A stretch of DNA of 64,000 bases. It comes from Alphaproteobacteria bacterium. Lineage in GTDB: Bacteria > Pseudomonadota > Alphaproteobacteria > GM7ARS4 > G965262615. Below are positions 53,243 to 57,875 of the stretch, one piece after another; position 1 is the stretch's first letter; the number at the start of each line of letters is the position of its first letter. Under the pieces are notes generated by a model that worked only from the letters and a program-made list of their open reading frames with translations, searched no databases and was not told the origin of the DNA. A program made the position numbers and the translations under genes. The stretch is from the NCBI GenBank assembly GCA_965262615.1, contig OZ253545.1, positions 896,001 to 960,000 on the forward strand. Reading direction: 5' to 3'.

Positions 53243-55723
53243 TTAATTGTCACTCTCTATATCTGGATTCAAAACATTTACATCATAAAGCCCGACATGT
53301 TTGTGTTTGTGTTTGATGATTCCCGTGTAAATGAGGCTTGAATTCTCGTAGCGTTTGAATTGATAGACGGCAGCATTCATGAGCGAACTGTTAAAGAGAT
53401 TCAGATTCACGAGCAAATCAAAATCCTTGATGGAGAGCCCTGTCACTTTTTTGAACAGTGTGGGTTCTAGTTGGGTGATGACATCCTTCAAAGTGTGCTC
53501 GCGATAGTCGGTGAGATACATGAACACAGGAATGCGCGTGGCAAATTTGATGAGCTTTTCTTGCACTTGTTTGCGGAGGCTTTTTTCTTTTTTTTCATCC
53601 TCTGTGAGTTGTTTCTTTTGTTTTTTAGTCAGTTCTTTTTCGTTGGCTTTTTCTTTGGTTTTTTTGATGGAGTCCGACTGGTTGATGATGGTTTCAATAT
53701 CTTGATTGAGACTTCTAAAGCCCTCAATGCTCATGAGGGCTTGCATGGCGGCTTCATTGTTGATGAGTTTTTTCAGCGTTTCATTATCCACATTGACCAA
53801 CAATGCGCTTTCCCACTTTCTTGCGAGGAGGGTGGCGGTTGTTTTGCTGGCGGCATAGTCTAGGATTCCGATCGCGTCTATTTGCTTCATTGAGCTGCCG
53901 TCATAGGCGAGAACAGGCAGAAACTTGATGAATTCCGCCACTTGTTTTTCGGGGTCGCTCTCTGTGGGATTGAGTTGGCTGCTGTAGTCGGCGATTTGTC
54001 GCAGAGCTCTGGTGGGAGCAAAATCAAACACATAGCACACCTGCTTGATGATCTCCTTGGCATTGGGCGAGAGACCGTCTCGGTTGGCGATTTCCCAAGG
54101 GGTTTGCACACGAAAGGCGGCTTGAAAGTATGTCTCGGGGCTGGATAAATTCCGCAGCATAAAAATGCCCGCCCACGGTTTGACCGAAACGCCCGTTGTG
54201 AGCTTGCCACACGAAAGAGTGATGGTTTTGGAACTGAGCGGGTCGTCCATGGCGTTGCGGACAGGGTCTAGTGCCTTCACCCCAATGCCCGCTTCCTTGC
54301 CCGCGGCGACAATTATTTTATAGTCATGATAAAAAACATTATCCCCCTCTTTGAGAAGATTCGCCATCGCATGACACGAGGCAACCGTCGGCAAAAACCA
54401 AAAAGTATGATTGAGCAAAGGCAATAGCCTTTTGTCGGAAAAAGGAAGCGGCGGCTTTTTGGCTTTGAGCTTGAGATTGTCTCGCGTTGTCTCCCGATGG
54501 CTACCGCGAATTAAATTCAGCCACTTTTGCACCTCATCCTTGTGGATGAATGCGGCATTGGCTTTTTCCCCTTCGGCTTTGAAAAACTCATTGAGATCAA
54601 ACTCGTCAAATTCGCCCTCTTTGGCTATTTCTTTGATGTCATCGGGCAGCTCGTAGGTCATCAGCACCATTTGCGGCAATGCGCTGTAGGGATTATCAGC
54701 TCCTTGCCATTCTTTTTTGGCTTTTTGTTCATCGGCATAAGTCCAGTTGAAGATTTCCTCCTCAATGAATTCCCCTGCGCCGATGGCGCGAAAGGGCGTT
54801 CCCGATAAATAAAGGCAGGCGTGGGTGGTGATGGGCATGATGTCTTTGTCAAAATGCTCCAAGCCTTCGCCTTGTTGGGCTTTTTGTTCTTGCCTGTCTT
54901 CCTCATCAAAGAGGTCTTTGGCTTTGGCGCGCCATGAGCCGTAGTGGTATTCATCAAAAATGACGCAATCCCAATTGAACTCATGCACCCATTCATTTTT
55001 TACCTTGATGCCGCCCGCACTGTTTTTACCAAGATAATCCTGAAATGAGCCAAAACAAACAAAAGGCTTGCTGGAATCAATTGATGATAAATTGTCCTTA
55101 TGGATAAATTGCCAACCCACAAAATCCTTGTGAGTGAGCAAATCCTCCTGCCATGCGTTTTGCACCGCAGGCTTGAATGTGATGACAAGAACGCGCCGCC
55201 AGTTCATTTGCAACGCCAATTGATAGGCGGCAAAGGTCTTGCCAAAACGCATCTTGGCATTCCAGAGAAAATGAGGCGTTTGTCCTTCTTCTGCTTTGAA
55301 TGACCGCATATGCTCGGCGGCGCGCCGCACAGCTTCTCGCTGTTCGGGACGCATGGCAAAATCATAAGGACGACCATCAATGCCCGGTGTGCGGTCGGTC
55401 AGAGATTTGACCGCCGCGGTCACATCAGACACTGAGCAACGAAACCACTCGCCTTCGGGATTAGAAAAGTCCCTGTCACGCAAATACCGATGCACATCAT
55501 GATCCGTGAAATAACTGCCATCGTTGCGAATCGCGGGCATATCCAGCTCAATGGTGTAGGGAATCTTGCCCGGAGCCTTTGTGGGATACTGCTGCGCCAC
55601 CCGCTCTGCCACCGATTGGTTGGTGTAGCCGATTTTCAAAAGCCCATCATATTGTGAGTGGGAATCCGAATAGGCGTAAATGCGCGGCTGGCTATGAGTT
55701 TTTTCAGGGAAAAATTTATCCAT
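53243..55723 (-). CDS. GIY-YIG/T5orf172 nuclease fused to SF2 helicase (restriction-type)
   Basis: IYAYS..LKIGYT..GEWF; NAKMRFGKT, FDEYH, LSGTPF, YFQAAFRVQ. Confidence 0.88.
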   Translation of the reverse strand: MDKFFPEKTHSQPRIYAYSDSHSQYDGLLKIGYTNQSVAERVAQQYPTKAPGKIPYTIELDMPAIRNDGSYFTDHDVHRYLRDRDFSNPEGEWFRCSVSDVTAAVKSLTDRTPGIDGRPYDFAMRPEQREAVRRAAEHMRSFKAEEGQTPHFLWNAKMRFGKTFAAYQLALQMNWRRVLVITFKPAVQNAWQEDLLTHKDFVGWQFIHKDNLSSIDSSKPFVCFGSFQDYLGKNSAGGIKVKNEWVHEFNWDCVIFDEYHYGSWRAKAKDLFDEEDRQEQKAQQGEGLEHFDKDIMPITTHACLYLSGTPFRAIGAGEFIEEEIFNWTYADEQKAKKEWQGADNPYSALPQMVLMTYELPDDIKEIAKEGEFDEFDLNEFFKAEGEKANAAFIHKDEVQKWLNLIRGSHRETTRDNLKLKAKKPPLPFSDKRLLPLLNHTFWFLPTVASCHAMANLLKEGDNVFYHDYKIIVAAGKEAGIGVKALDPVRNAMDDPLSSKTITLSCGKLTTGVSVKPWAGIFMLRNLSSPETYFQAAFRVQTPWEIANRDGLSPNAKEIIKQVCYVFDFAPTRALRQIADYSSQLNPTESDPEKQVAEFIKFLPVLAYDGSSMKQIDAIGILDYAASKTTATLLARKWESALLVNVDNETLKKLINNEAAMQALMSIEGFRSLNQDIETIINQSDSIKKTKEKANEKELTKKQKKQLTEDEKKEKSLRKQVQEKLIKFATRIPVFMYLTDYREHTLKDVITQLEPTLFKKVTGLSIKDFDLLVNLNLFNSSLMNAAVYQFKRYENSSLIYTGIIKHKHKHVGLYDVNVLNPDIESDN

Positions 55724-55735
55724 AAATTTTTACCA

Positions 55736-57247: not shown

Positions 57248-57875
57248 GCACCTTCAAAAAATGAATGGGATGGAAATCTCTGCACGGGCGCGGAATAAAC
57301 ACCTCCTCGCCTTGGTCTGAGGTGAGGGTCTCACCCTCCAGAGGCAGAGGTTTCACCAGAGTCTCAAATGTGTAATCGGTTCGCTTCACCAGACTGCCCG
57401 AGATAAAACTCCATTGTGAGAAAACAATCGGCTCCGTGCCGTGTGGCTTCTTCAAAGTGAGAGCATCACCCCACAGTATATTGCGAGCCAATACAAAATC
57501 AATCACATCAATAAACGCATCGTGCGCCGTCTTCTTATACAAAGAGCCGTAACATCGCCGCACCAGAGACAACAAACGAGAACGACACATCGCAACATTG
57601 TCAGCAAGAATCTCAACGCCATACACGCTCCCCACGCCCTGAAAGCAATAGCGTTCAAACTCCAACTGGCTATCGTGATAACGCTTGCCAATGACCTCAA
57701 GCTTGCGCCGCAAAATCTCCACCAAGAAATTGCCATCCCCGCACGCCGGCTCAAGAAAGCGAGAATCAATCCGCACCGTCTCATCATACACCAAATCCAG
57801 CATGGCGTTCACCTCCCGCTCGGATGTAAACACCTCACCAAAATTCTCAACCCGCCGCTTCGTCTTAATGGACAT
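57222..57875 (-). CDS. Small SAM-binding methyltransferase-like subunit lacking catalytic NPPY
   Basis: GEVFT, FLEPACGDGNFL, YGVEI, NILWGDAL; no xPPY. Confidence 0.85.
   Translation of the reverse strand: MSIKTKRRVENFGEVFTSEREVNAMLDLVYDETVRIDSRFLEPACGDGNFLVEILRRKLEVIGKRYHDSQLEFERYCFQGVGSVYGVEILADNVAMCRSRLLSLVRRCYGSLYKKTAHDAFIDVIDFVLARNILWGDALTLKKPHGTEPIVFSQWSFISGSLVKRTDYTFETLVKPLPLEGETLTSDQGEEVFIPRPCRDFHPIHFLKVRDAVPHES

Follow-up and report, generated by a model that had tools for sequence, protein, structure and literature searches.

We examined a window of 64,000 nucleotides from an Alphaproteobacteria bacterium (GenBank assembly GCA_965262615.1, contig OZ253545.1, positions 896,001 to 960,000), which contains a compact cassette of three genes on the minus strand, here called S, L and HN. 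The listing of open reading frames (ORFs) placed these three tightly packed genes where a first-pass annotation of the sequence had put them. S (57222-57875, 217 aa) encodes a stand-alone "half methylase" with motifs X, I, II and III, a beta-hairpin and a conserved tail, and it has no motif IV. L (55736-57247; 503 aa from a GTG, or 502 aa from an ATG at 57244) encodes a predicted gamma-class N6-adenine methylase with a fused target recognition domain (TRD), and HN (53243-55723, 826 aa) a T5orf172 nuclease-like domain fused to a motor of the superfamily 2 (SF2) helicase type. S and L overlap by 26 nt, or by 23 nt if L starts at the ATG, which lies one codon after the GTG and is preceded by GAAGG; the gap between L and HN is 12 nt. 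The cassette occurs once in the genome, which is a single 1.54-Mb contig. The first-pass annotation had read the three genes as one helicase-nuclease system with a complementary split methyltransferase, and all of the S and L motifs on which it relied were found at the expected places, with no catalytic motif in S.

In S, motif I has the canonical Gly-x-Gly form FLEPACGDGNF (residues 40-50; 57726-57758), motif II is YGVEI (residues 85-89) and motif III is ILWGDAL (residues 133-139; 57459-57479). In an alignment of 27 S proteins (A1) the mean column identity was 69%; G46, G48, D137 and the motifs of the C-terminal tail were invariant, and position 88 was Asp or Glu in every row. A word-indexed search, in which 8000 candidates of 119-380 aa were scored and 7999 passed a threshold of E ≤ 0.001, indicated a family of at least 7999 clusters at 90% identity, and the best 120 homologs were mostly 210-235 aa long. 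We also performed an exhaustive search of 1.84 billion representatives (50% identity) with a profile of S, which returned 4361, 2827 and 814 proteins at E ≤ 1e-3, 1e-10 and 1e-30, respectively; six of the best 150 exceeded 480 aa. The possibility that S is a gene fragment or pseudogene was rejected, given this large conserved family. Members come from many bacterial phyla and from a few archaeal bins, and some lie on plasmids of lactic acid bacteria and enterococci. Automated annotation labels S simply "N-6 DNA methylase". Pfam gave only a sub-threshold match, to the N-terminal MmeI_Mtase family, a comparison of the S profile with solved structures by sequence gave no match, and NCBIfam returned nothing above its cut-offs for S, L or HN.

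L matched the Pfam Eco57I family (PF07669, E value 4e-37) and the PADLOC profile MTase_II (1e-53), and its motif order, X-I-II-IV-TRD, is that of the gamma class. Motif X is DEIFTPP (residues 22-28). Motif I is a variant, FLDPCCKSGVF (residues 50-60; 57068-57100), with K56 where S has G46, and motif II is likewise a variant, LYGIAITQ (residues 91-98; 56954-56977), with A95 where S has E88, so that the acidic residue is gone. An insert containing H139, C146, C149 and H171 (56735-56833) lies between motifs III and IV, the catalytic motif IV is FDVIVGNPPYQ (residues 183-193; 56669-56701), and the target recognition region with C-terminal helices occupies approximately residues 301-503 (55739-56347). 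Across 58 L sequences (57 full-length homologs and the protein from the window) motif I takes the form FLDPxxK(S/T)GVFLR, with the Lys in all 58, and motif II the form G(I/L)AIT, while NPPYQ is present in every one, as SNPPYQ in one. When all loci were scanned with regular expressions, 190 ORFs had a Lys-type motif ahead of NPPY, with nine misses and a single S-type ORF, counts that include duplicated contigs. Six of the nine misses were inspected; three were full-length proteins with the Lys in a variant context and three were truncated or masked. Each chain thus keeps what the other has altered: S has motifs I, II and III without motif IV, and L has NPPY together with the Lys-for-Gly and Ala-for-Glu changes. 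Comparison across homologues, as the first-pass annotation had proposed, found this complementary pattern throughout the family.

The four His and Cys residues of the L insert are invariant in the alignment of L proteins (A3), the region was modeled with a predicted local distance difference test score (pLDDT) of 64-78, and it is a candidate zinc knuckle that may bind zinc. One L homolog (locus L133, 4599-5990) has the whole His/Cys insert deleted and keeps the Lys motif and NPPY; the insert is therefore dispensable in at least one lineage. Mean pairwise identity among L proteins was 74.9% in the N-terminal half (residues 8-120, hereafter N'), 58.1% in the insert (121-175), 61.5% in the catalytic core (176-300) and 36.8% in the recognition domain (301-470). 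In L, motif X (FTPP) is also retained, as are the Asp-Pro and the final Gly of motif I. The first-pass annotation had called the cofactor motifs of L degenerate. Their alteration in a manner complementary to S holds across the family, but since N' is the most conserved part of L and appears strongly selected, the word does not fit, and this half of the protein looks repurposed rather than decayed.

A model of L alone, made with AlphaFold2 (pLDDT 84.4, predicted template modeling score 0.84), contained a complete methylase and recognition domain. Within N', the model placed beta1 at residues 50-55 and beta2 at residues 91-95, in a block with pLDDT of 85-97. The best fold match was CamA (Z 23.8, root mean square deviation (rmsd) 5.3 over 409 residues), followed by BrxX (Z 20.0), M.BseCI (Z 19.8), DrdV (Z 19.6), MmeI (Z 19.4) and M.TaqI (Z 18.1), and the alignments to these folds ran from residue 10-24 onward. 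The recognition region aligned to the recognition domains of CamA, M.BseCI and M.TaqI. By sequence, L had no match among solved structures.

It had also been suggested that S and the N-terminal half of L derive from an ancient duplication. A profile-profile comparison with hhalign agreed, aligning S with N' at a probability of 96.8% and an E value of 3e-10, with 33% identity over 78 columns, and pairing residues G46 and E88 of S with K56 and A95 of L, respectively. S and N' are accordingly paralogs.

The reading of the third gene as a T5orf172 domain joined to an SF2 helicase was also borne out. The T5orf172/GIY-YIG-like domain of HN (residues 16-107; 55403-55678) matched Pfam PF10544 with an E value of 5e-10 and 40.3 bits against a cut-off of 20, and also MUG113. 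In the alignment of HN proteins (A2), Y16, Y18, G32, R41, H78 and E92 are invariant, and the Tyr, Arg and Glu among these we take to be catalytic. HN can on these features be placed in the T5orf172/GIY-YIG-like superfamily, and nuclease activity is predicted for it. Pfam found no helicase family in HN. The sequence motifs AKMRFGKT (motif I) to DEYH (motif II; 54944-55258), SGTP (54794-54805) and QAAFRVQTP (motif VI; 54098-54124) are invariant among HN homologs and, together with the PADLOC match and the PF04851 domain found on fused relatives, indicate a motor of the SF2 helicase type. Residues 121-774 of HN match positions 155-822 of the 1359-position PADLOC profile "REase_MTase_IIG" (PDLC03626), and residues 181-496 of L match positions 1010-1352 of the same profile; since one profile covers both proteins, fused relatives must exist. 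HN is 63-69% identical to 20 homologs from many phyla. Neither HN nor its profile matched any solved chain by sequence, even at E ≤ 1.

In order to determine how often the three genes occur together, loci were collected from both ends of the cassette. The S-anchored set consisted of 80 loci from many phyla and one archaeal bin. A full L lay next door in 60 of the 65 loci with at least 1650 nt of downstream sequence, and some form of L in 63; where at least 7200 nt was available (43 loci), a full HN was present in 37 and some form of HN in 42. In the exceptions (L016, L051, L061, L076 and L080) L was not full length, being absent from L051 and L076, and HN was partial or absent. The HN-anchored set, collected with alignment A2, consisted of 76 loci, L081 and L040 among them. 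Both L and S were present in 51 of the 53 HN-anchored loci with at least 2300 nt upstream; of the two misses, L104 is cut by the end of its contig and L137 is a helicase fragment with nothing upstream. The other 23 loci had too little upstream sequence and were left uncounted. Several contigs are shared between the two sets, so that they are not independent samples. Among the 42 complete loci that were tabulated, nearly all have S and L genes that either overlap or lie end to end. Thirteen complete loci have 0.4-3 kb between L and HN, and in 11 of these the interval holds at least one ORF of at least 100 aa. Since the same gene order and the same motif states recur across many phyla, the recurrence of the trio is far beyond chance. 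The three genes are therefore one conserved system, as had been proposed, and the small gene, whose frequent absence would have spoken against the proposed split methyltransferase, is regularly present.

Relatives in which the modules are fused or rearranged provide further information. A total of 468 proteins of 882-2515 aa, typically about 1300-1520 aa, matched the catalytic region of L at E ≤ 0.001 and carry PF07669 and PF04851, sometimes with PF10544. All seven of these "giants" that we inspected have the order T5orf172, helicase, N' with a Lys motif (for example INSKSGLY or LYAKSGLY), NPPYQ and recognition domain. Giants with no N-terminal methylase half, which would force complementation in trans, were looked for and rejected, as the seven inspected all carry the Lys-type half. 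S-like genes were found on 73 plasmid records. The Lactococcus cremoris plasmid pUC047G encodes a 230-aa "N-6 DNA methylase" whose motif has the canonical Gly-x-Gly, and 2 nt downstream of this gene a giant begins, a 1461-aa "Eco57I ... domain-containing protein" bearing the Lys motif. In both architectures, therefore, a Lys-type half is accompanied by a separate S.

We also sorted 80 longer relatives of S. Twelve are fusions of S to N', among them P0126 (713 aa), a clean in-frame fusion of S and L. Another 48 are single chains: an S-like half, its motifs canonical, is followed directly by MKFDVIVGNPPYQ and a C-terminal part resembling that of L, and both N' and the His/Cys insert are lacking. 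The remaining 20 are other forms. In mixed alignments for P0126, S homologs fell on the paralogous half of L (about 22% identity) or were scattered (11-19%); an alignment of S homologs only was sound but left the L part without depth. In two of the 20 other forms, P0160 and P0198, the first 75-150 residues of S are joined to the helicase-nuclease and L is missing; these are probably deletion chimeras of S and the helicase, and they make frequent rearrangement of the cassette visible. The single-chain forms were scattered among the stand-alone ones in a maximum-likelihood tree (quick search, LG+G4) built from 98 S domains, for which every third stand-alone S from the word-indexed search was used. 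The single-chain state needs 12 changes on this tree, compared with a mean of 32.7 after shuffling, and the starred branches force at least seven; the exact number of changes is soft because some rows lie on long branches. One well supported clade of 15 rows contains 14 single chains. Single-chain enzymes joining an S-like half directly to an NPPY part thus arose repeatedly. Genomic context was visible for one single-chain form, in Niastella populi (L160, 6980-8882), where the methylase is followed by a 111-aa T5orf172 stub and neither a helicase nor a separate S is present; this appears to be what is left of the system as an orphan.

Our literature search found no published characterization of the S-L-HN family, and it is not covered in the accessible portions of a 2025 review (PMC12707154) and of a classification preprint (10.1101/2023.12.13.571470). 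Table 2 of a further paper (PMC13515534), as far as its accessible text goes, lists three consecutive Casimicrobium huifangae SJ-1 genes that REBASE designates "M1, M2, Type IIG" (MT/RE) and that are uncharacterized there; these may have the same architecture, and REBASE may file it in this way.

The claim that the system does not fit types I-III is formally true; however, it is clearly related in design to Type ISP and Type IIG enzymes. There is no gene for an HsdS-type subunit in the operon, as a Type I system would have, and the recognition domain is instead fused to L. A Type III assignment is contradicted by the gamma-class order of L, with its C-terminal TRD, and by the N-terminal position and T5orf172 nature of the nuclease-like domain of HN. 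There is a close resemblance to the Type ISP enzymes LlaGI and LlaBIII, with which the fused relatives share the module order nuclease, SF2 motor, gamma-class N6-adenine methylase and C-terminal TRD. Here too an SF2 helicase-like ATPase motor is present, as is a gamma-class N6-adenine methylase followed by a recognition domain, and the L model superimposes on the methylase-TRD portions of LlaGI (Z 19.3, 366 residues, rmsd 4.9) and LlaBIII (Z 18.9, 377 residues, rmsd 5.9). The Type ISP enzymes differ in being one polypeptide rather than three. Their N-terminal nuclease is of the Mrr/PD-(D/E)xK type, whereas that of HN is T5orf172/GIY-YIG-like, and only the present system has the apparently obligate extra half-methylase S and the Lys-type motif I. 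Likeness to the Type IIG/IIL enzymes (the Eco57I family, MmeI, DrdV and BpuSI) is seen in the Eco57I domain, in the match to PDLC03626, a Type IIG profile that also takes in the fused relatives, and in the fold of L, which is near those of DrdV and MmeI. Those enzymes are single chains, unlike a system with a separate HN gene bearing ATPase motifs, and to our knowledge they have no ATP-driven motor and no separate cofactor-binding partner.

Paired methylase subunits are also known. In METTL3-METTL14 and the ciliate MTA1 complex, two paralogous proteins of the methylase fold divide the labor, with cofactor site and catalytic motif both retained on one subunit; in the present system they are separated, S having the intact cofactor motifs and L the catalytic one. 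The C5-cytosine methylases M.AquI and M.EcoHK31I are encoded by two adjacent or overlapping genes whose products are true complementary pieces, whereas L retains a full-length fold and S duplicates its N-terminal half. The nearest published system is the conserved cluster DnmA(YeeA)-YeeB-YeeC of Bacillus subtilis, with homologues in Vibrio crassostreae; it is found in defense islands and likewise brings an adenine methylase together with an SF2 helicase and a T5orf172 protein. According to the accessible part of its description (PMC9973331), the helicase and T5orf172 components are separate proteins, DnmA is homologous to MmeI, and a small partner is not mentioned there. As far as these descriptions extend, the system in the window is set apart by its T5orf172-helicase fusion and by its Eco57I-type methylase with S.

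We favor, at a probability of roughly 0.55, the reading that the cassette encodes a heteromeric methylase within an ATP-dependent restriction system resembling Type ISP, and that S is required for methylation. L would read the DNA target through its fast-evolving C-terminal recognition domain and would carry the adenine-methylating NPPY pocket. S would be its obligate partner, keeping the canonical S-adenosylmethionine (SAM) pocket that is altered in L and binding or handing over the cofactor. The S-L heteromer would thus be needed for methylation, presumably of one strand of an asymmetric site, and probably for licensing of the whole complex. HN would dock on the S-L module; many relatives have HN fused immediately ahead of the N' of L. 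On unmethylated targets HN might then burn ATP, translocate and cut through its T5orf172 domain in the manner of a Type ISP enzyme. From the sequences we infer the contact between S and L, the choice of cofactor-binding subunit and the cleavage step.

A stricter form of this reading, which we regard as tentative and would put well below even odds, is that the active site is composite, with the cofactor held on S and the flipped adenine on L. Sharing of the site in trans is plausible. N', with its invariant Lys, His/Cys knuckle and top conservation, would then have been retooled as a docking or coupling domain for S and HN, and methylation only in the assembled complex might serve as a safeguard tying self-protection to the restriction machine.

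Several observations weigh against the favored reading. L alone was modeled as a complete gamma-methylase with its own N' in the cofactor position, and because this half is confidently predicted no evident gap is left for S to fill. AlphaFold can be expected to place a homologous half canonically whatever its function; the model therefore weakens the view of a site shared in trans and does not refute it. L has a full cofactor-type half of its own, unlike a truly split methylase, and the highly conserved N' may bind the cofactor in its own way. M.TaqI, which we take to have Ala rather than Gly at the position of K56, is nevertheless active. The model of S, which contains a motif X helix, beta1 at residues 40-43, beta2 at 84-87, long helices, a hairpin at 151-169, a disordered stretch at 176-191 and a confident C-terminal segment, is itself only moderately confident (mean pLDDT 76.5). 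A fold search with it returned nothing at E ≤ 0.001, and the weak top rows were the methylase domains of MmeI, CamA, BrxX, BsaXI and LlaBIII. Finally, the B. subtilis DnmA-YeeB-YeeC cluster did not restrict the phages tried, according to the accessible text of its description (PMC9973331).

These points lead to the strongest competing explanation, in which L is self-sufficient through its altered N', and S is a SAM-sensing, regulatory or assembly subunit outside the catalytic site that could gate HN according to cofactor level or bridge L and HN. The complete canonical fold of the L model, with its confident N-terminal half, agrees with this explanation, as do the purifying selection on N', the strongest in L, and the retention there of motif X and part of motif I. 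SAM is moreover an allosteric effector of Type I, III and IIG restriction enzymes. What a self-sufficient L leaves unexplained is that L has changed at exactly those three cofactor-contacting positions that S retains, and that single chains in which N' is swapped for an S-like half have appeared repeatedly and persisted. We consider this explanation possible, though short of probable.

It is improbable that the copy in the window, or the family, is a relic whose methylase marks DNA for gene regulation while HN stays idle: the accessible text on the B. subtilis DnmA-YeeB-YeeC cluster (PMC9973331) does come to that conclusion, having found no phage or transformation phenotype, decayed copies do exist (five of 65 S-anchored loci lack a full-length L and have at most a partial HN) and N. 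populi retains only its single-chain methylase and T5orf172 stub, but all three ORFs in the window are full length with every signature residue intact, HN is 63-69% identical across phyla beside a diversifying recognition domain, as is typical of active restriction systems, and the cassette sits within a defense island.

This island, which is horizontally acquired, is a stretch of lower GC content (0.36-0.50, compared with 0.52-0.57 beyond it). One edge is marked by a tRNA-Ser(GGA) gene (61044-61133, minus strand), probably an integration hot spot, after which ssb and uvrA follow at higher GC. A search of 40 relatives, three from the same order and 37 from the same class, found HN in one, at 57% identity. 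The island also contains a SIR2-domain protein, a cassette of a PLD nuclease and two methylases, and fragments of a Type III-like system. The SIR2_2 protein (995 aa; 43495-46482, minus strand; domain E value 9e-18) adjoins an unannotated ORF of 227 aa (47068-47751), and both are probably further defense genes of the island. Between 47884 and 53201 on the plus strand, a BPTD_3080-family restriction endonuclease is represented by a 219-aa N-terminal piece (profile positions 2-204 of 970) and a Type III methylase by a 256-aa C-terminal piece (positions 717-983 of 983), and the low-GC cassette between the two pieces (48624-52408) encodes two N6/N4 methylases and a PLD (NgoFVII-like) nuclease. The PLD/two-methylase system seems to have replaced the middle of another restriction system here.

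On the other side of the S-L-HN cassette, an ORF of 1021 aa with a hydrophobic N-terminal part (ORF-A; 57899-60964, minus strand) ends 23 nt before S on the same strand. It had no match in Pfam, PADLOC or NCBIfam, and only weak atlas leads ("membrane protein family", score 0.85). We considered ORF-A as a fourth component and rejected it, as it matched nothing in any other locus fetched and has no family match; it may be a separate gene of the island that is co-transcribed with the cassette. A scan for promoters and terminators found sites no more numerous than in shuffled sequence.

The size and spread of the S family point to a very widespread restriction-modification system that is apparently uncharacterized. 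Its abundance and the possible roles of the half-methylase S should make it of interest to restriction-enzyme specialists, and the family, with its swappable recognition domain, may be a source of new specificities. Should methylation need S, then the assignment of methylome motifs to genes and the automated annotation of restriction systems misread thousands of loci. If the composite reading is true, the family would provide a split Rossmann-fold DNA methylase of an undescribed kind, and an active site truly shared by two chains would represent a new design for a DNA methyltransferase and a new means of coupling modification to restriction.

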